Shown: piece by piece, positions 1 to 12,319 of the stretch | Layout of the letters: the number at the start of each line of letters is the position of its first letter | Numbering within the stretch: position 1 is the first letter of the stretch | Assembly: GCA_048938025.1 (NCBI GenBank) | Contig: JBHLMP010000013.1 | Coordinates: 1 to 64,000 of the forward strand | Length of the DNA stretch: 64,000 bases | Reading direction: 5' to 3' | From: Promethearchaeota archaeon | Lineage (GTDB): Archaea > Asgardarchaeota > Lokiarchaeia > Sigyniarchaeales > SOKP01 | Position numbers and translations under genes: made by a program | The notes under the pieces: model-generated | Told to the model about the DNA's origin: nothing | The model's input: the letters and a program-made list of their open reading frames with translations, nothing else | The model's database searches: none

Positions 1-54
1 AAAATAATTGACAATATATAATCTTTAGGCGAGATTTAACAACAATAACAACCC

Positions 55-91
55 AAAAAAAAAAAAAAAAACAACAACAAAAAAAAAAAAT
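55..91 (-). terminator. Long oligo-T tract (minus strand) downstream of the 1032-aa gene; likely archaeal terminator
   Basis: Two long A runs on + separated by CAACAAC, starting about 18 nt after the stop at 109; homopolymer length may be partly sequencing error. Confidence 0.5.
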
Positions 92-108
92 AATAATTTA
101 ATATATTT

Positions 109-3100
109 TTATTTCAACTTTATGCGTCTCAAATAAGTTATCACAGTTATTATCCCTATTGCTCCCATCACAATTAACCCAATGGGTATTAAACCTGGTA
201 GTGGAATAGCAGGGGCTCCACCATCCGTACTTCGAGTTGTAAATGTCCATGTTGCAGATTGTGTTATAAACGTCCCATCATTAGCCCTAACATACCATTG
301 ACAGACCATGTCACTTGTTACCCCCGACCAGGTTACTGAAGCTGTGCCACTCCCACCTGCAACAATGTCTGAGCCTATTAAACTATCATCGGATGCATTA
401 TAAAATGTTACTGTTAATGAATCCCCATCATCATCAGATACATCTACGCTTAGGGTAGGGTCGTCACCAACACCAGTAGCCCCATCACTAGGAGTTGGGT
501 TTGTCGGAGCATTGGGTGGGTGAATTATTTCGAATTCAGAAGTAGTAAATGACCATGTAGCAGATTGAATTACACTTAACCCATCATCGGATTTTGCATA
601 CCATGAATAAACCGTATTAGTTGAGAGTGCCGGCCAGGTCACCGAAGCGGTACCGTTCCCTCCTAAGACAAGCTCAGAATCAATTAAACTATCATCAGAA
701 GCATCATAAAATGATACTGTTAAGAGATCTCCGTCGAAATCAAATACGTCCACGCTTAGGGTAGTGTAGGGGTGGGTTACGTTACCAATATCAGTAGCCC
801 CATCATTAGGAGTTGGATTTATTGGAGCATCGGGCTCGTAATTTGTAATAAATGACCATGTAGCAGATTGTATCATGTTTAACCCATCATAGGATTCTAC
901 ATACCATGAATAATTGGTTCCCGGCAATATTCCTGACCACACTGCAGAGGCGTTACCGATCCCTCCTACAACAGTATCTGATCCTATTAGGCTATCATCA
1001 GAATCATCATAAAATGACACGGTCAGATCATCTCCATCATTATCAAATACATCCACCCATAACGTAGGGCTGTAATCAATACGAGTAGCCCCATCATAAG
1101 GTTTTGGATTTACGGGAACACCGGGCGCGTAATTTGTAGTAAATGTCCAGTTACCAGAGCGAGTTACACTTAACCCATCATCAGATTTTGCATACCATAT
1201 ATAGGTTGTATCATTTGTGAGTCCCGACCAGGATGCTGAAGCTCTACCGCTACCTCCAAAAATATACTCCCATCCTATTAGGCTATCATCAGAAGCATCA
1301 TAAAACGATACGTTCATAATATCTCCGTCGTTATCAAATACGTCCGCGCTTAATGTAGGGTTGAAATTAATATTTGTAGCGTTAGCAAGAGGAGTTGGAT
1401 TTGTGGGAACACCGGGCGCGTAATTTGTAGTAAAGGACCATGTAGGAGATTGATCTACATTTCCTTGTCCATCATCAGTTATTATATACCACGAATAGAC
1501 CGTATCACTTGAGAGTCCCGACCAGATTTCTGAAGCTGTGCCATTCCCACCTATAACAACGTCTGAGCCTATTAGGCTATCATCAGAAGCATCATAAAAT
1601 GACACGGTTAAATCATCTCCTTCTAAGTCAATTACATACACAGATAATGTAGGATTATACACGATATCTGTAGCTCCATTTGCAGGAGTTGGACTAAGGA
1701 AAGCTTGACCCTTTTGCATATAAATGAGCGTAACATATGGGGGAATACTATTTTCATACGAAGTATAACAAGTTCCAGAGCCTGCAGGATTTATGTCATG
1801 ATTATGAGAAGGACTACTTAAGTCTGTAGTCCAAGTATTTCCATCATCACGCCACCAAGCCGATCTCGACCCGCCTCCGGGTGAAGTTTCTATAGCGCCT
1901 TTGCTATATATGCTGTGTCGATGATTCATATTATCATTTGGAATAGTGTGTGTATGTTCGGGAACCTCCGTATAGGCATGACGATGTTCTACATCTCCTC
2001 CAATAAGTCCAGGTTGTTCTCCAGTTGCTACACCTTGTGTAAATCTATTAAGCAGGTTAGGTGTACCAGTTTCTCCATTGCATGGAAACCAACCTGAGGG
2101 TATGTTCGCTATTGAATCTCCCCACATAGTAATAGATCCCAACGGTAAATCATCGGTTGCTGCTGTACTCATTATGAACGCAACCTTGAAGTAGGGTGGA
2201 AGGTTGTCTGTTTCCTCAGTTGTGCAAGTTGTTAACCCAATTGTGGGTACAGAATGTATGTGAGGAACATCTTTATAATTAGTCCAGCCAGTACTAGCAC
2301 GTAAAACATCGTAATTCCATATCAGAGCACCTATTTCTCTGGGGGACGCATCCACTCCTCCATGGCTATGACTCTTACCATTAGTGTCGATAGTATGTCT
2401 ATGTCGAGGAATTTCGGTATATGTATGACTATGGGATATAGTTCCCCCTAACGTTCCAGGATCTTCCCCAGGAGGGGCTCCTCGAATGAATTTATCTCGA
2501 AGATCAGGGGTTCCGTTCGATCCATTGCAAAGTTCCCACCCTGCAGGAATAGAATCTATCTCACCTGCCCACATTACAATCAGGCCGATAGGAATAGGAG
2601 TATCATCTGCTTCCTTCTCGATAAATAACATCGAGTAATAGGGTGGGATGATATCTTCTTCTGCAGACGTATAAAGATCCCCGGCTGTACCCGTATAGCT
2701 GGTATACCCACCATGATTATGATTTGCAGATTCAGCACCAGTAGAGGAAACAGCAAGACCAAGAGCGTTGAATGGCCATAATGACGTACCATACTCGCTC
2801 CAGTAAATATTTGGTTGACGATAGGTGTGTCTGTGTGGAGTGCTTGTTATACCAGATTCACCGTGATCGTGGTAAGGAACCGTAGAGTAACTATGACTAT
2901 GTGTTGTTTGACCACCCGTGGCTCCAGGTGCTGAAGCACCATAAACAAAAAGATTAGTTGTGTCTATTGTGCCATCGGAACCATTACACAGTTTCCACCC
3001 AGCTGGGATTGTATTTAAGGGTCCGGACCACAAAGCAATTAGACCATCTGATTCATATGCTTGACTAGTTCTCACATTTTTGTTTATAAAAATAAATCCA

Positions 3101-3207
3101 GGTTTCATCCAGAAGGTAAGGGAAAAGAAAAGAGTACAAAGTATTAATAGGCTTAGAAATTTCTTATGATCTAGTTTTCTTTTATACATTTGAATAACAC
3201 TATTCAT
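109..3207 (-). CDS. Secreted, C-terminally anchored surface protein: 3 phage tail-collar/HxH repeats + 5 Ig/FN3-like repeats
   Basis: N-terminal basic+hydrophobic signal; 3x GxIxxWxG...IPxGWxxCNG..GT.(D/N) collar motif; 5x ~98-aa PTPxxGAT...DGDxLTVSFYDASDDSLIG...W.FTT; C-terminal PAIP-TM-RRIKLK anchor. Confidence 0.85.
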   Translation of the reverse strand: MNSVIQMYKRKLDHKKFLSLLILCTLFFSLTFWMKPGFIFINKNVRTSQAYESDGLIALWSGPLNTIPAGWKLCNGSDGTIDTTNLFVYGASAPGATGGQTTHSHSYSTVPYHDHGESGITSTPHRHTYRQPNIYWSEYGTSLWPFNALGLAVSSTGAESANHNHGGYTSYTGTAGDLYTSAEEDIIPPYYSMLFIEKEADDTPIPIGLIVMWAGEIDSIPAGWELCNGSNGTPDLRDKFIRGAPPGEDPGTLGGTISHSHTYTEIPRHRHTIDTNGKSHSHGGVDASPREIGALIWNYDVLRASTGWTNYKDVPHIHSVPTIGLTTCTTEETDNLPPYFKVAFIMSTAATDDLPLGSITMWGDSIANIPSGWFPCNGETGTPNLLNRFTQGVATGEQPGLIGGDVEHRHAYTEVPEHTHTIPNDNMNHRHSIYSKGAIETSPGGGSRSAWWRDDGNTWTTDLSSPSHNHDINPAGSGTCYTSYENSIPPYVTLIYMQKGQAFLSPTPANGATDIVYNPTLSVYVIDLEGDDLTVSFYDASDDSLIGSDVVIGGNGTASEIWSGLSSDTVYSWYIITDDGQGNVDQSPTWSFTTNYAPGVPTNPTPLANATNINFNPTLSADVFDNDGDIMNVSFYDASDDSLIGWEYIFGGSGRASASWSGLTNDTTYIWYAKSDDGLSVTRSGNWTFTTNYAPGVPVNPKPYDGATRIDYSPTLWVDVFDNDGDDLTVSFYDDSDDSLIGSDTVVGGIGNASAVWSGILPGTNYSWYVESYDGLNMIQSATWSFITNYEPDAPINPTPNDGATDIGNVTHPYTTLSVDVFDFDGDLLTVSFYDASDDSLIDSELVLGGNGTASVTWPALSTNTVYSWYAKSDDGLSVIQSATWSFTTSEFEIIHPPNAPTNPTPSDGATGVGDDPTLSVDVSDDDGDSLTVTFYNASDDSLIGSDIVAGGSGTASVTWSGVTSDMVCQWYVRANDGTFITQSATWTFTTRSTDGGAPAIPLPGLIPIGLIVMGAIGIITVITYLRRIKLK
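233..1695 (-). repeat. Five tandem ~295-nt Ig-like domain coding repeats
   Basis: Recurrent DNA such as CTATCATCAGAAGCATCATAAAA near 689, 1283 and 1577, with variants near 383 and 992. Confidence 0.9.
1710..3048 (-). repeat. Three tandem ~150-aa tail-collar/HxH repeats
   Basis: Repeat starts at about 3045, 2595 and 2148; each has four HxH doublets and ends in PPY. Confidence 0.85.
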
Positions 3208-4429: not shown

Positions 4430-5143
4430 ATGGGCATACGGAAAATAGAAGATGAGATTGATTTAAGGGAAGCGATGAAGAAAAAAGCTGCTGAGATAAA
4501 AATGAAGGACATGGAAGCTAAAGCTGCCGTAGAAAAGTTTACAAAAGATAAATTAAGAGAATTAGCTAAAAAGCATGGCGTATTATTAGCTCTAACTCCT
4601 GAATTAAGAGAGGAAGTTAAAAAGCTGCAAAAGCAATATAATATTCCCTCTTCAAAAATCATAACTGAGCAAATAACTGAGCATGATGTTTTAAAAAAGT
4701 TTTCTAAAATTGATTATCAGAAATTAGGGATGTTAGCATACCAGAGAGTTTTAATGGCTAAAGAAGAAACGGGGGGAATAATTCCACTGTCAGAAGTTTT
4801 CGATCTAGTTAATACAGGAATCTTAAAAGGTAACATGGAGATTAAGGATATAGAAAAGTCCATGAAACTTTTAAAGAAAGAAAGAGCAATTGAAGATGTT
4901 TACCAATTGGAATCTGGAGCAGTCATGATTAGATTTTTCCCTATTCAATATACTGATGATGAAGCTAAGGTAATTGAATTAGCAAAACAAAAAGATTATC
5001 TTACAATTGAGGATGTATGTGTAAATTTAGATTGGTCTCAAGATCGTGCTCTAAGAGCATTAGATTCGCTCGAAAAGAGCGGGATGGCAAAATTTAGGGA
5101 ATCTGTGCTTACAGGAAAACAGTGGTTTTTCCCATCGTTATAA
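4430..5143 (+). CDS. ESCRT-II EAP30 (Vps22/Vps36-like) protein
   Basis: MGIRKI N-terminal helix, ETGGIIPLSEV, tandem winged helices ending WSQDRA...L...G...QWFFP; adjacent to Vps4. Confidence 0.8.
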   Translation: MGIRKIEDEIDLREAMKKKAAEIKMKDMEAKAAVEKFTKDKLRELAKKHGVLLALTPELREEVKKLQKQYNIPSSKIITEQITEHDVLKKFSKIDYQKLGMLAYQRVLMAKEETGGIIPLSEVFDLVNTGILKGNMEIKDIEKSMKLLKKERAIEDVYQLESGAVMIRFFPIQYTDDEAKVIELAKQKDYLTIEDVCVNLDWSQDRALRALDSLEKSGMAKFRESVLTGKQWFFPSL

Positions 5144-5156
5144 ATTTCTTATTTTT

Positions 5157-6071
5157 TTACTCTAATGTAATTTTAAAGGCTAATTGCCCATCTTCTAATT
5201 TAAATATCTTAGCTTTACGATTTTTTACTAAGATTCTAAAAATCTCTTCCAAATCTTCAAGAGGAAGATTACTAAAATCTTCAGATTTTGCTTCTCTAAT
5301 TTCATATATCATAATAGGCTCTAATCTTCCTTGTTGATAAGCCCATTCATAAATTTCAACTGAAAATAATTCAAGCGACTTCCAATAAACTCGTAATCTA
5401 TTTTTATTTTTGGATAACCACTTTGCTTGATTTTTATTGACTAACTCTTCTGCAACTTCTCTTATATTCGCTTCTCGATTGGAAAAATTTGAAAATGGCT
5501 TTTCAGAATTAAGATTTCTAATATATATAATATGTAGAACGGCAAATCTAGCATAATCAAAAAGTACTTTTGCCCATTCAGTTTTCCACGAAGTGTAATC
5601 AGTTAGATTTTTTTTCTTGTTTGGCATTGTATACATGAATTTTTTTTTTTCTTCTTCAAGCCAAGGATAAGCTTGTAATAATTTTTCATAAGGTGATAAT
5701 TCCTTTACGATAAGACCCTCTTCCCCTACTATTTCTTCTTCAAGTATTTGAAGTTCTGATTCTATCTGCTTGGCTTGTTGTTTAAATGCTTTATGATCTA
5801 TTTCTCCGAGGTCAGAGCTCAATAAATCTTCGATTTTTTCGAAACTATCTTCTAAATATTTTAAAGCATCAACTTCTACATCATCAGTTTCGAGTTCTTC
5901 CTTTTGTTTTACAACAACTTCTTCTTTCGATTTTCTTTGCTCTAATTGTTCTTTTTCTTTCTTTAACTTTCTTAATCTTGCTAATTCACGCCTTAATTCT
6001 TTTAATTCTTTTTCGGCTTTCTCTTTAAGCTCTTTTGGAACTTCTTCCGGTTTTTCTCTTTGTCTTTCCAT
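5157..6071 (-). CDS. ESCRT-II Vps25-like protein with N-terminal coiled coil
   Basis: FMYTMP...WKTEWAKVLFDY, AKW..KNKNRLRVYWKS..IYEW resemble Vps25 winged helices; about 125-aa E/K-rich N-terminus. Confidence 0.75.
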   Translation of the reverse strand: MERQREKPEEVPKELKEKAEKELKELRRELARLRKLKKEKEQLEQRKSKEEVVVKQKEELETDDVEVDALKYLEDSFEKIEDLLSSDLGEIDHKAFKQQAKQIESELQILEEEIVGEEGLIVKELSPYEKLLQAYPWLEEEKKKFMYTMPNKKKNLTDYTSWKTEWAKVLFDYARFAVLHIIYIRNLNSEKPFSNFSNREANIREVAEELVNKNQAKWLSKNKNRLRVYWKSLELFSVEIYEWAYQQGRLEPIMIYEIREAKSEDFSNLPLEDLEEIFRILVKNRKAKIFKLEDGQLAFKITLE

Positions 6072-6086
6072 TTTTACTCTCTAATT

Positions 6087-7304
6087 TTATATTTCTCCAA
6101 ATTCTTCTGCCCAATCGTTATATTGCTTTAATAATATTTTATTTGTCATTGGTTTAACTTTTTTAAGCGTTTTCTTGAAATCTTTCAACGTTATATCCCG
6201 AACTTTAACTTCTTTCTCAGAATCCTCTAAGAGGCCACTCATATCTAATTCTCTAACTGGTAACATAATTACTTCACGACATATATTGGCAATATCTCTT
6301 CCAGAGTACCCATCAGTTCTTACAGCTAGTTCAATAAAATCTTCATCTAAGAGTGCAGAATTCACACCTTCAGTGTGGATTTCAAAAATTCCAGCTCTAG
6401 CTTTCAAATCTGGAAGAGGTACTTGCACTCTTTTTTCAAATCTGCTCAACATTGCATTATCAATATCCCAAGGACGGTTTGTTGCTCCCAAAACAAGCAA
6501 TGGTTTATCATGAGTGGATTTTAAACCTTGAATTTCACTTAAAAGTTGTGTTTTTACTCTTCTTTCACCTCCGCTTTCAGATCCTTCTCCTCTTTTGGTC
6601 GCAACTGAATCTATTTCATCCATAAATATCAAACTAGGTGCTTTTAACCGGGCTACTTTGAATAAAGAACTAATTAGCTTTTCACTTTCCCCTAACCATT
6701 TACTTAATAAATCAGCAGAAGAAGCACTAAAAAAAGTAGCTTTACATTCAGTAGCAGCTGCTTTAGCTAACAATGTTTTACCACAACCAGGGGGACCAAA
6801 TAATAAAATTCCTGACCATGGTTTTCGGGCTCCAGTAAATAATTCTGGTTTCATTATTGGAAGAACAATCGCTTCTCTTAATGCTTGTTTAACTTGTTCT
6901 AATCCTGCTATGTCTTTCCATTTTACATTAGGAGATTCAGTTACAATTGTACCTGATATTATATCAATAAGTTCTTGTTCTTCTGAAGAAACTGCTCCCA
7001 TATCAACTTTGGATTCATCATCCTTTGATATCCCTGGTCTTTCAGCAGGTCTTACCTTCCTAGGTCGCGTTCCACCAAGTTGTGATTTTAATATCTTAGC
7101 TCTGTCAACATATTCTTCGATGTTCTTTTGACACAACATTCGCATTTGAGGATTTTTATTGTATTTCATGAATTGCATTAATATCTCCGCAGCTCTTTGA
7201 TATTTGTTTATTGCCTGCCGATATTTTCCTTGCCCATCTAAAGTAACAGCTTCTTTTGCTTCTCTAACAGCATATTGATAGAGTTTTGAATCAACTGATG
7301 ACAT
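6087..7304 (-). CDS. vps4: Vps4 AAA+ ATPase with MIT domain
   Basis: MIT (AVTLD..G.Y..AI..Y..AAE.L...YVDRA), GPPGCGKT, SKWLGESEK, DEID, GATNRPW, C-terminal WAEEFG. Confidence 0.95.
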   Translation of the reverse strand: MSSVDSKLYQYAVREAKEAVTLDGQGKYRQAINKYQRAAEILMQFMKYNKNPQMRMLCQKNIEEYVDRAKILKSQLGGTRPRKVRPAERPGISKDDESKVDMGAVSSEEQELIDIISGTIVTESPNVKWKDIAGLEQVKQALREAIVLPIMKPELFTGARKPWSGILLFGPPGCGKTLLAKAAATECKATFFSASSADLLSKWLGESEKLISSLFKVARLKAPSLIFMDEIDSVATKRGEGSESGGERRVKTQLLSEIQGLKSTHDKPLLVLGATNRPWDIDNAMLSRFEKRVQVPLPDLKARAGIFEIHTEGVNSALLDEDFIELAVRTDGYSGRDIANICREVIMLPVRELDMSGLLEDSEKEVKVRDITLKDFKKTLKKVKPMTNKILLKQYNDWAEEFGEI

Positions 7305-7485: not shown

Positions 7486-8127
7486 ATGATTATGGGGTTT
7501 CTAAAAGATATCTCAAAATGGCTCTCCGGAGGTAAGGGAAAGGATAATATCCGTTCCGCTACTGTTAAATTAAAGGTTTTTAATAAACGATTATTGCGTC
7601 AGTCTAAAAAGCTAGAGATGAGTGCTAAGTTAGCAAGGGATAAGGCAGTAAATCTTCGAAAACAAGGCGATATGGATGGGTCTAAATTTCATGCGAGAAA
7701 TTATCTTCAAGTAAAAAAACAGGCTCGAGCAATAGACGCTTTTCGTACAAATATGGAAGGTCTATTATTTAAGCTAGACCAAGCTGAAGCGGTGAAGGAT
7801 GTATCCCAAATTATGACGGGCATTGCACAATCAGTAGCAGCATTGAAAAGACAGTTATCTATTCCACAAATCACAGAAATGATGAAGCAAATTGACCTTG
7901 ACGTAGAAGATTTTGCTGTCACCCAAGAAATTACTGCAGAAGGGATAGATTCCATTACATTAGATACAGCAGTAACAGATTCAGATGTAAACGAAGTATT
8001 AGGGGAAATAGATGCTGAAATCCAAGTGGAAATGGGGGTGGCACTTCCTACGGCTGGATCTGCGACTAGCGATCAAAAGATAGCAGAATTGGAAAAGGAG
8101 CTAAACCGTTTAAAGTCTGACGAGTAA
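7486..8127 (+). CDS. ESCRT-III, Vps2/24/46 (CHMP1-3-like) class
   Basis: Snf7-fold pattern (KQGDMDGSKFHARNY, IPQITEMMKQ), amphipathic N-terminus GFLKDISKWL, MIM1-like C-terminus ELEKELNRLK. Confidence 0.88.
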   Translation: MIMGFLKDISKWLSGGKGKDNIRSATVKLKVFNKRLLRQSKKLEMSAKLARDKAVNLRKQGDMDGSKFHARNYLQVKKQARAIDAFRTNMEGLLFKLDQAEAVKDVSQIMTGIAQSVAALKRQLSIPQITEMMKQIDLDVEDFAVTQEITAEGIDSITLDTAVTDSDVNEVLGEIDAEIQVEMGVALPTAGSATSDQKIAELEKELNRLKSDE

Positions 8128-9589: not shown

Positions 9590-10477
9590 ATGGTAAAAGT
9601 AATTTCTAGAATAGTTAAAGGAAAAAAATATCATTATTTATCACATTCATATAGAGAAGGAGGAAAAGTCCTTCATATAGAGAAGTATTTAGGTAACGAA
9701 TTACCTTCACTTGAAGAATTAGCTTTTATTAAAGATGATTTTAATTATGAAATCTTTCAAAAACGATGGGAATCTACTATTGAACAAATAAAAGAAAATT
9801 TCAGAAAAGAATTTGAATCGATGCCTAACCCAATTCAAGTAAAAGATTTGAGAAATTTTGGAGTTCATTTTACACATAATACAAATAGAATTGAAGGATC
9901 AAGTCTAACTCTTAAAGATGTCGCTTTAATTGTAGAAGATAATATTACTCCAAAAAACAAATCCACTAATGATATAATTGAAGCAAAATCTCACATGAGC
10001 GTTTATGAAGTTATGATTAATTCTGAAAGACAAATAGATTGGGAACTATTATTAGATTGGCATGAAAAAATATTTGAATTAACAAAACCAGAAATAGCAG
10101 GAATAATTAGAAGATACCCTGTTCAAATTATTAGGAGTAAATTTGTTCCTCCAATTGCAGGAATAGAAGAACTTTTAGATGATTTACTTAAATGGTATAA
10201 AGAAAATAAAAATAAATTAAATCCCGTATATCTTGCGTGTTTAATGCATTTTCGATTTGTATCAATTCATCCATTTGGAGATGGAAATGGTAGAATGTGC
10301 AGAATACTTATGAATTATATCTTATATAAAAATAAATATCCTATGTTTGATATAGAATATAAAGTCCGACAAAGCTATTATAACGCTTTAGAAAATGCAA
10401 ACTTAAAAGAAGATGAAATGCTTTTTATTCATTGGTTTTTTAGCAGGTACCTTAAAGCCAATAATAAATATTTATGA
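9590..10477 (+). CDS. Fic-family protein (class II, auto-inhibited)
   Basis: HPFGDGNGRMCR catalytic motif; TNRIEG inhibitory helix; basic beta-rich N-terminal domain. Confidence 0.92.
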   Translation: MVKVISRIVKGKKYHYLSHSYREGGKVLHIEKYLGNELPSLEELAFIKDDFNYEIFQKRWESTIEQIKENFRKEFESMPNPIQVKDLRNFGVHFTHNTNRIEGSSLTLKDVALIVEDNITPKNKSTNDIIEAKSHMSVYEVMINSERQIDWELLLDWHEKIFELTKPEIAGIIRRYPVQIIRSKFVPPIAGIEELLDDLLKWYKENKNKLNPVYLACLMHFRFVSIHPFGDGNGRMCRILMNYILYKNKYPMFDIEYKVRQSYYNALENANLKEDEMLFIHWFFSRYLKANNKYL

Positions 10478-10842: not shown

Positions 10843-11691
10843 TTATAAAAATCCTAGGAGATCAGAGACCCCATCTATAGGAGGAACATCAAATTTAAAG
10901 TAATTTTTAACAATCTGTACTAAGAATTTTAGATAGGGTAATTTGATATTTTCATCATGAACTTTTACTAATTCATCAATGAGAATCTTAGATGAAACTA
11001 CCTTATCCTTATTGTTTTTGATGAGTTCTGTAATAGTTTTAGAATATTCATATGCTTTATGTATTTCATTTCTTAATAAAATTAAACCGGTCATCAAATC
11101 ATATTCAGACAAAAATTTTTCAGCAACAGTTTTTTCTACCTCTAATTTCTTTGGATCAATAACCTTATCTTTATCTTGTATTATATTCCTACCCTCAAGA
11201 ATTAGAAATTCTTTATAACTCTTCTTATTTGTTTTATAATCATCACTTGAAATGATTGTTATATCAATTTCAAATGAATTCTGCATAATATATTTGAAGA
11301 AATTCATGATATGGTTATAAAGAAACCCTAGATCAGAGATTAATATTATTTTTTTACCAAAAAATGTTGCTCTAATAACATGAGCAATTAGCAAAGCAGG
11401 TATATTTATTCTAATTAAATCAAAATCAATTGATTCAGTTTCAGGAACAATTCTGTCTTCAACTACTATTGCTGATGGATTAGCAGGTAATTGAATCTGA
11501 AAATCTGCCATGAAATAATCCCGTATTTGCATATTTCTATCTACATAAGCAATAAATGAATGTTCACAAATAATACCAACAGCTATATTGACTGCTAATA
11601 CTCCTTTTGAAACATTTTTTATTGCATCTTCTGAAATCTCTATTTTTCCTCTTGCTGAACAAGAGGGGCATCGAATTTCAAGTTTTGCCAT
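10843..11691 (-). CDS. Hypothetical protein with N-terminal CxxC...CxH zinc finger
   Basis: CPSC...ICEHSF; long ORF with typical composition. Confidence 0.65.
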   Translation of the reverse strand: MAKLEIRCPSCSARGKIEISEDAIKNVSKGVLAVNIAVGIICEHSFIAYVDRNMQIRDYFMADFQIQLPANPSAIVVEDRIVPETESIDFDLIRINIPALLIAHVIRATFFGKKIILISDLGFLYNHIMNFFKYIMQNSFEIDITIISSDDYKTNKKSYKEFLILEGRNIIQDKDKVIDPKKLEVEKTVAEKFLSEYDLMTGLILLRNEIHKAYEYSKTITELIKNNKDKVVSSKILIDELVKVHDENIKLPYLKFLVQIVKNYFKFDVPPIDGVSDLLGFL

Positions 11692-11839: not shown

Positions 11840-12319
11840 TTAATATTTTTGTACTCTAGCGTACTTCTTTTCTATAAGATTAGCGATAAGTAAACATATT
11901 ACTGCGCTCAAATTTTCAGCTGTTAAGAATGACAGGCTATTATTTAAAAATAGAACACAGATATAGTATGAACTAAAAAATATAGCAAGAAAAATAAAAC
12001 AAGTTATTAATAAAGGTTTAGTTATTGGAAAATCTAAGAAAAGCCTCAATTTTGAACGTTTATTCCTTAATTTCTTAAATTGGCTTTTCAATTTCTCTCT
12101 TCTCTCCACTTGAGCATAACTTTCGAAAATTATTATTGTAGAAAAAAATAACGCAACAGTGATTCCTATAGGAATTAATATTACTACAAAATAATTGCCA
12201 ATACCTAGCAGATATTGAGCTATAAAAATAAAAAATAATTGGAACATTCCGCACATACCTAACAGAAGTAGGGCAATTCCAAAAAATTCCTTTGATAACC
12301 AACGAATTCTAATCGGCAT
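11840..12319 (-). CDS. Hypothetical 4-TM membrane protein
   Basis: Two pairs of hydrophobic helices separated by a basic loop; directly downstream of tRNA-Val. Confidence 0.65.
   Translation of the reverse strand: MPIRIRWLSKEFFGIALLLLGMCGMFQLFFIFIAQYLLGIGNYFVVILIPIGITVALFFSTIIIFESYAQVERREKLKSQFKKLRNKRSKLRLFLDFPITKPLLITCFIFLAIFFSSYYICVLFLNNSLSFLTAENLSAVICLLIANLIEKKYARVQKY

Follow-up and report, generated by a model that had tools for sequence, protein, structure and literature searches.

The stretch of DNA analysed here, referred to as the window, comprises the first 64,000 nucleotides of contig JBHLMP010000013.1 (assembly GCA_048938025.1) from a Promethearchaeota archaeon of the order Sigyniarchaeales. 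At its left end lies a single open reading frame (ORF) on the minus strand (109..3207), which encodes a protein of 1032 residues; a search of NCBIfam returned no family covering this whole protein. From the N- to the C-terminus it consists of a hydrophobic leader, three tail-collar repeats of ~150 residues, five FN3/Ig-like repeats, and a hydrophobic segment followed by a basic C-terminus. A preliminary description had presented the gene as a cell-anchored adhesin with a head resembling the tip of a phage tail fibre, and the anatomy that it gave was borne out in every item checked, as the repeats, the list of HxH motifs, the PPY motifs, the stalk and the C-terminal motif could all be read in the ORF.

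Layout of the encoded protein

The three collar repeats, which form the head of the protein, share a pairwise identity of 34-39%. Each opens with the collar motif G-x-I-x-x-W...IP-x-GW-x-x-CNG-x-x-GTP, continues with four HxH doublets and closes with PPY (residues 188, 337, and 489), which gives 12 HxH motifs in total. Repeat 1 (residues 53-203; 2599..3051, minus strand) carries HSH/HDH/HRH, a variable loop (132-155) and HNH; repeat 2 (residues 201-352; 2152..2607, minus strand) carries HSH/HRH/HSH, a variable loop (285-304) and HIH; and repeat 3 (residues 352-508; 1684..2154, minus strand) carries HRH/HTH/HRH, a variable loop (435-461) and HNH. This is precisely the series of doublets, with the closing PPY, that had been listed before for the three repeats. 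Twenty-four of the 27 histidines of the whole protein lie inside HxH motifs. In the family alignment, each repeat contains exactly one hypervariable stretch, corresponding to the loops given above and always located between the third and the fourth HxH. The Pfam family Collar (PF07484) matched three stretches of the protein above its gathering score (38.1 bits versus a cut-off of 24, E 1.5e-9), and PHROG 5795, annotated as 'tail protein', likewise matched in three stretches (E 4.7e-44). Solved relatives found by sequence search were 6ov6, 9qgo, and 9nxk (E 1e-6 to 2e-4), fibre proteins that are all deposited as three-chain entries.

The N-terminal leader (residues 1-34; 3106..3207, minus strand) has a basic stretch and then the hydrophobic sequence FLSLLILCTLFFSLTFW, with a Kyte-Doolittle peak at residues 16-21. 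The hydrophobic stretch extends over about residues 16-34 and recurs with the same layout in relatives, so that the leader previously placed ahead of the repeats was indeed seen; its sequence is compatible with a signal peptide as well as with a signal anchor. The stalk (residues ~509-990; 238..1683, minus strand) is made up of five beta-sandwich repeats of ~97 residues that are 55-65% identical. AlphaFold2 predicted the five-domain stalk to be all-beta (pLDDT 90.0, pTM 0.54), and Foldseek searches against the PDB returned at least 500 matches at E <= 0.001; mastigoneme and ciliary central-apparatus proteins, together with titin I65-I70, headed the list, and the FN3 arrays of PTP-delta, RPTP-mu, and LAR also ranked high. 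The presence of five Ig-like repeats was thus confirmed by repeat alignment, AlphaFold2, and Foldseek alike.

The C-terminal anchor (residues 991-1032; 112..237, minus strand) reads ...APAIPLPGL, a hydrophobic stretch of about residues 996-1020 (peak 996-1011), and RRIKLK, in agreement with the anchor of a PAIP motif, a membrane helix and a basic tail proposed earlier. By sequence, this end resembles the Loki-CTERM/PGF-CTERM sorting signal, and surface proteins of that type share with the present protein a leader, extracellular domains, a proline/glycine motif, a hydrophobic helix, and a basic tail. The stop codon and the tract downstream of it (1..111, minus strand), read directly from the sequence as far as the contig end, are A-rich on the plus strand and T-rich on the gene strand; this A-rich tract 3' of the gene is likely its terminator region.

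Conservation and predicted fold of the head

When the head was used as query in a word-indexed protein search, 148 proteins were found at E <= 1e-5. Among the best 120 of these 148, the source names, where given, were Promethearchaeota, Lokiarchaeota or Hodarchaeota, with one Thermoplasmata; the ~38 archaeal relatives with three head repeats mostly carried the label Promethearchaeota or Lokiarchaeota. Three head repeats were present in 38 of the 40 best relatives, the other two being 5'-truncated ORFs whose start falls within a repeat, and 33 of the 40 contained exactly 12 HxH motifs. When 37 relatives were aligned, all but one of the 24 motif histidines proved invariant (23 of 24), and the last was kept in at least 90% of the sequences. 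Because the motif histidines are near-invariant, the HxH pattern is more than chance. The number of window-type stalk repeats in the same 40 proteins was five in 13, none in 8, two in 7, one in 4, three, six, and seven in 2 each, and four and nine in 1 each. With a head constant at three repeats in 38 of 40 proteins and a stalk of 0-9 repeats, we can conclude that the family keeps a set number of head repeats and tolerates variation in the stalk. The proline/glycine motif, hydrophobic helix, and basic tail form the C-terminal end of most of these 40 relatives.

With the family alignment as input, AlphaFold2 modelled residues 45-520 as a single chain with a mean pLDDT of 89.9 and a pTM of 0.76, that is, as one compact and confident body, in line with the single-chain head that had been envisaged. 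Comparison with the stalk model (similar pLDDT, pTM 0.76 versus 0.54) leads to the prediction that the head is one rigid compact body and the stalk is arranged as beads on a string. Docking between the repeats was then computed in ESMFold2 with repeats 1 and 2 and repeat 3 as separate chains, four Zn ions included, and our own alignment supplied. Repeat 3 docked on repeats 1 and 2 with an ipSAE of 0.77 (0.78, 0.77, and 0.76 in the individual runs), compared to 0.01 for the best of three controls. The mark of 0.77 was attained by 58 of 80 solved complexes and by 2 of 110 mismatched pairs, counts that are only rough in the present case because of the supplied alignment and the small molecule present. 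Contact agreement between runs was at least 90%, the partner pLDDT was at least 81, and 627-695 contact pairs were formed, in an interface that took in almost all of repeat 3, long stretches of repeats 1 and 2, and every HxH motif.

The tightest pairs in these dockings were symmetry-equivalent and cyclic. In construct numbering (full-length numbering minus 44), the strand following PPY in repeat 3 (446-449) has as its partner the conserved F-strand of repeat 1 (42-45 and 52-53); for the corresponding strand in repeat 2 (295-298), the partner is the F-strand of repeat 3 (345-347). Since the contacts are cyclic and repeat 3 comes back on repeat 1, they match what would be expected for a closed pseudo-threefold ring. 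The model also brings the terminal strands of adjacent repeats into contact, which would put the start and the end of each repeat in the collar; the stalk would exit on the collar side, and the needle would point away from it. The chain thus takes the path of a fibre tip, running from the collar through the HxH motifs and back to the collar, as seen both in the four HxH and closing PPY strand of each repeat and in the model contacts. As the fold programs have learned homotrimeric tips, the docking result shows likeness to such tips, not the true oligomeric state of the head.

Repeat numbers and viral counterparts

A profile of one repeat was run against 1.84 billion representative proteins, which yielded 17,463 proteins at E <= 0.001, of which 169 reached E <= 1e-30. 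Repeats were counted in the top 150 of the profile matches, a set that contains 141 new members and favours multi-repeat proteins. Three collar starts were found in 87 of the 141, two in 42, one in 9, and five, six, and nine in one protein each. The suggestion that the repeat number might always be three therefore stood for the orthologous archaeal family (38 of 40) and failed for the wider superfamily, where 1, 2, 3, 6, and 9 repeats occur. In some large proteins (P0123, P0132, P0152, and P0041) the collar repeats number 6 or 9 and so amount to two or three triple modules per chain. The two-repeat proteins include a complete family of ~275 residues with ~10 HxH and no other domain (P0190, P0209, P0216, P0220, P0230, P0238, P0239, P0248, P0256 and others; alignment A3). 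A scan of viral contigs for close relatives of P0190 gave distant matches only, and when ten proteins with one, two, or three repeats were looked up by cluster, none came with a name.

We next considered a tree of 122 single repeats, which is unrooted, was obtained from a quick search, and has many weak forks. The Asgard repeats clustered by position (SH-aLRT 91-97 for the first, 94 for the second, and 84 for the third repeat), from which it follows that one triplication would be older than the Asgard family. An actinophage/bacterial group also sorted by position, apart from the Asgard repeats. In several other proteins and three-gene sets, repeats grouped by protein, which argues for independent triplications. 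Triplication of the collar unit thus appears to have arisen several times.

The closest counterparts among predicted viral structures (Foldseek against BFVD) were Pas29 (E 1.2e-17, TMq 0.53, 494 columns) and Pas28 (E 5e-16, TMq 0.48) of Actinoplanes phage phiAsp2. Both have tail genes as neighbours and encode 3 repeats and 12 HxH each, and the phiAsp2 record for Pas29 mentions 'HXHY motifs' and a possible receptor-recognising role. Like the archaeal head, they carry their three collar/HxH units in tandem on one chain, and the match extends along the entire module. They differ in being virus-encoded, in lacking a leader, an FN3 stalk and a membrane anchor, in a sequence identity of only 17-19%, and in the position of their repeats on the tree, where their position-wise clades are separate from the Asgard ones. 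The nearest Atlas clusters were viral 'bare triple' proteins of 424-427 residues (score 0.86), a match that serves as a lead only.

Triple sets also occur as separate genes. Methanosarcinales virus vir515 (BK063672.1; L007 5785-7888) has three consecutive 'tail protein' genes of ~235 residues with one collar repeat each, a candidate for a heterotrimeric fibre of an archaeal virus. Each of the three has an N-terminal part of ~80 residues followed by the collar, and the set comes soon after a tape-measure gene, with one hypothetical ORF of 611 residues in between. In a survey of 80 IMG/VR loci picked by the collar motif, 65 had one collar gene, 7 had two, 4 had three in tandem, 2 had a fused triple, 1 had a pair of triples as in Pas28/29, and 1 was unclear. 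In six of the two-gene loci (L020, L022, L044, L051, L082, and L085) a protein of ~208-268 residues with 5-6 HxH is accompanied by one of ~185 residues with 3 HxH; in the seventh (L089) the proteins have 338 and 319 residues and 2 HxH each. No third collar gene was found beside these seven loci, even at relaxed thresholds, and they could encode either a 2:1 heterotrimer or two separate homotrimers. An experimental precedent for the three-gene form is virophage DSLV2, whose three-gene set forms a 1:1:1 heterotrimer resembling the gp37 tip, according to passages of PMC12724248. The DSLV2 tripartite tail proteins share with the archaeal head three diverged collar/needle units, a single fibre tip and an asymmetric variable head; they differ in being three separate virus genes of ~200-250 residues each, where the archaeal form is one ORF with a stalk and an anchor.

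The fibre tips of the T4 gp37/gp12 type are homotrimers whose chains are obligately intertwined, and textbooks use them as the standard example of such an assembly. These tips and the solved structures 6OV6, 9NXK, and 9QGO share the collar (PF07484), the HxH motifs, and the closing PPY strand with the archaeal protein. The difference is that they are homotrimers that end the fibres of virions or injection systems at the C-terminus, whereas the archaeal ORF encodes three diverged copies per chain, in the N-terminal part of a membrane-anchored cellular protein. The solved chains also superpose poorly on the archaeal head model (TMt 0.26-0.29). Of these structures, Foldseek assigns 9nxk to Pseudomonas phage Pa223, where it is the tail fiber. 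A figure legend in PMC10097599 identifies 6OV6 as coming from a prophage of Bizionia argentinensis, again a tail fibre, and a preprint on a Photorhabdus PVC is listed as citing 9QGO ('Tail fiber protein'). Among viruses themselves, a series from a homotrimer to three paralogous genes to one fused chain is plausible. Because both fused triples and three-gene sets are found in tailed viruses, the fusion is not an archaeal invention; the unrooted tree gives no direction for a transfer between viruses and cells. Our literature searches, with most subscription journals and supplements outside their scope, found no description of a single-chain collar/HxH pseudo-trimer and no paper that brings the phage tail collar together with Asgard archaea.

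Taken together, these data make it most likely that the head is a single-chain pseudo-trimer in which one chain supplies all three units. This was the central claim of the preliminary description; the predicted fold, the cyclic docking, and the fixed number of three support it and fall short of proof. The alternative would be a homotrimeric fibre, in which three whole proteins run in parallel and repeats 1, 2, and 3 each form stacked trimers along a trimeric stalk. Solved relatives are without exception three-chain entries, tandem domains along trimeric fibres are common, and the fold programs could mistake contacts between chains for contacts within one. A homotrimer would however leave the predominance of 3, 6, and 9 repeats and the independent triplications without a reason, as it would the fixed repeat number of a head whose stalk varies. 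Only about 10 residues link one repeat to the next, repeat 3 closes the cycle of docking contacts on repeat 1, and an FN3/Ig stalk with a single C-terminal anchor is typical of monomeric surface proteins. Three-gene heterotrimers, moreover, do exist (PMC12724248). We therefore regard the homotrimer as quite unlikely.

Several points tell against the single-chain arrangement and have to be set beside it. Homotrimeric tips were part of what AlphaFold2 and ESMFold2 learned from, and both programs may bring homologous repeats together out of this training. At E <= 0.001, a Foldseek search with the head model found nothing among solved structures; its top match, 6ov6_A, had a probability of 0.92, an E of 0.026, a TMt of 0.26, and an rmsd of 19.6 A, values to be read in the light of the poor comparability of extended single chains of an intertwined trimer with a one-chain model. 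The clustering of the histidines and the four metal sites in the head are inferred. Finally, neither the two-repeat proteins (42 of 141, the ~275-residue family included) nor the viral loci that have a mere pair of adjoining collar genes (7 of 80) fit a simple rule of three.

Proposed role at the cell surface and genome setting

On balance we consider it probable, with some room for doubt, that the gene encodes a host-encoded, membrane-anchored surface protein of an Asgard archaeon of the Loki type, with a single-chain pseudo-trimeric tip head on a stalk and with adhesion as its most likely function. Starting from the computed anatomy, conservation, compact fold, inter-repeat docking, and cellular gene context, we infer a monomer whose metal binding, tip geometry, ligand, and function would be as follows. 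After export, the C-terminal hydrophobic helix and basic tail would hold the protein in the membrane, and an archaeosortase-type enzyme may process the C-terminus. The five FN3/Ig-like domains would serve as a flexible stalk, estimated at roughly 20 nm from the usual length of ~4 nm per domain. The N-terminal 460 residues would be the distal head, whose three diverged collar/HxH repeats would wrap around a pseudo-threefold axis, one chain doing the work of three chains in tips of the T4 gp37/gp12 type. The stalk would leave on the collar side, and the needle would face outward from the cell. HxH motifs at equivalent positions of the three repeats would come together in as many as four hexa-histidine metal sites (Fe or Zn), stapling the needle, and the three hypervariable loops, one per repeat, would form an asymmetric binding tip. 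Most likely, then, the protein would serve in adhesion, its target being a glycan or protein of another cell or of a surface. It is the variable loops, the outward geometry, and the adjustable stalk that point to recognition of an external ligand and favour an adhesin. According to passages of PMC9834061, Lokiarchaea lack an S-layer and have many protruding surface proteins thought to mediate cell-cell contacts.

Less in keeping with an exported protein that is sorted and anchored at its C-terminus are the following results. If the leader were left uncleaved, it would tether the head to the membrane at both ends. The IPLPGL... end departs from Loki-CTERM/PGF-CTERM proteins in missing the model: the NCBIfam profile for Loki-CTERM (NF033507) had no match in the last 50 residues at E <= 10, and in a scan of the genome the end of the adhesin gene was not among 27 matches, which included 13 ORFs over the cut-off. 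On seven relatives the same profile placed three just under the cut-off (18.6, 18.4, and 15.0 bits versus 19.9). Two adjacent ORFs of ~243 residues are among the Loki-CTERM matches above the cut-off in the same genome (C10:38257-38337 and C10:39206-39286). A second departure is that no archaeosortase above the cut-off was found in this genome, which is 96.7% complete: a profile search with PF09721 (exosortase) gave no match, and TIGR04125 gave two weak matches, located on contigs C63 and C13 (30.2 and 29.1 bits versus a cut-off of 75). As for expression, a metatranscriptome contig of 261 nucleotides is identical to 2757-3017 of the window, and an RNA-library contig of 1119 nucleotides is about 92% alike at 1125-2213; such contigs are a weak hint and not proof of transcription.

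The adhesin gene is accessory and patchy in the phylum. Matches at E <= 1e-10 were present in 6 of 301 genomes of a phylum sample (its own genome included) and in 1 of 21 other genomes of the genus. Such a distribution is often seen for defence and surface-variation genes, and together with the viral type of the head and the hypervariable tip loops, which suggest an arms race, it lends some appeal to the main functional rival of an adhesin, an anti-viral decoy or receptor mask. In such a role the knob would stop infection by occupying the virus receptor of its own cell or by catching virions as they arrive. Against such a role, no defence genes were seen adjoining the gene in three genomes (PADLOC was not searched), and a variable-length stalk that projects the knob suits outward reach more than masking in cis. 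We judge a decoy unlikely. The histidines raise yet another function, since the 24 conserved residues might mainly bind or scavenge surface iron or zinc. PMC6116203 describes how HxH motifs in trimeric fibres form hexa-histidine Fe/Zn sites on the axis, and PMC11705849 proposes phage HxH fibres as iron ligands. In those solved fibres, however, the metals are buried and structural (PMC6116203); moreover, four ions would be a poor yield for a protein of 1032 residues, and the variable tip loops and the stalk point to recognition. Metal capture is the explanation to which we give the least credence, as an extremely unlikely one.

If the protein is an adhesin as proposed, it would be a candidate for cell-cell or cell-virus recognition, and a concrete conserved component among the 'numerous surface proteins' that passages of PMC9834061 attribute to S-layer-less Lokiarchaea. 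A natural single-chain tip would fix the stoichiometry, spare the assembly of three chains, and let each third of the tip evolve separately, which bears on protein-fold evolution (from homotrimer to three genes to fused chain) and on the engineering of receptor-binding modules. A more far-reaching scenario, to which we give an outside chance, is that Loki-type archaea took the one-chain metal-stapled knob from archaeal tailed viruses and display it on adjustable stalks to recognise syntrophic partners. If so, a tip made of three different loops could read asymmetric ligands beyond the reach of a symmetric phage trimer, and virus-derived adhesins would join the cell-cell contacts invoked in models of eukaryogenesis. 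The general interest is limited by the accessory status of the gene (6/301 sampled genomes).

Upstream of the adhesin gene lie a PUA-domain gene and then an ESCRT-II/Vps4/Snf7 cluster; these ESCRT neighbours and the Loki-type names of the relatives point to an Asgard host. The window starts at base 1 of the contig, 108 bases past the stop codon, so that the downstream side of the gene is beyond the contig end. The 108 A-rich bases (window 1-109) recur at 97% identity at the end of the 126,087-base contig C38 (L002/L003). This is the only candidate adjoining contig, and its end carries genes for RsmB, CYTH, and a nucleotidyl-transferase (sugar-nucleotide). The two contigs may adjoin, the low-complexity tract having probably broken the assembly. 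The gene is single-copy in its own genome, and relatives at 57-58% identity in two other genomes have metabolic genes on both sides. The earlier view that the setting is non-viral is thus upheld by cellular genes flanking the adhesin or its relatives in three genomes, the own downstream side being beyond the contig end.

These data bear on the possibility that the gene is the tail-fibre gene of a provirus or contractile injection locus (a part of a virion or tailocin) that continues beyond the contig end. The best family matches are phage tail proteins and the contig does end 108 bases past the stop codon, but a leader and a C-terminal membrane anchor are unlike a virion fibre, and the neighbours on record, namely the upstream ESCRT and housekeeping genes, the RsmB, CYTH, and sugar-nucleotide genes of the candidate adjoining contig, and the metabolic genes around the relatives, speak against it, as does the single copy. 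A virion part is therefore very unlikely; as far as can be seen, this is an accessory gene of the cell itself that encodes a surface protein, not the margin of a provirus. A recent foreign origin was also considered on the basis of composition and rejected: the gene has a GC content of 0.42 versus 0.30 for the window, but its GC3 of 0.287 is within the 0.14-0.31 of its neighbours, the high gene GC being due to codon positions 1 and 2 and hence to amino-acid content. No gene neighbourhood proved to be conserved: in three genomes (G156, G065, and G165) the genes beside the relatives have no counterpart in the first 30 kb of the window.

Within the upstream cluster, Pfam matches identified an EAP30/Vps22-36-like gene (4430-5143, plus strand), an ESCRT-II Vps25-like gene (5157-6071, minus strand), a Vps4 gene with MIT and AAA domains (6087-7304, minus strand), and a Snf7/ESCRT-III gene (7486-8127, plus strand). 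Further along the window are a gene for a Fic/DOC family protein (9590-10477; Pfam) and two ORFs without a Pfam match (10843-11691 and 11840-12319).

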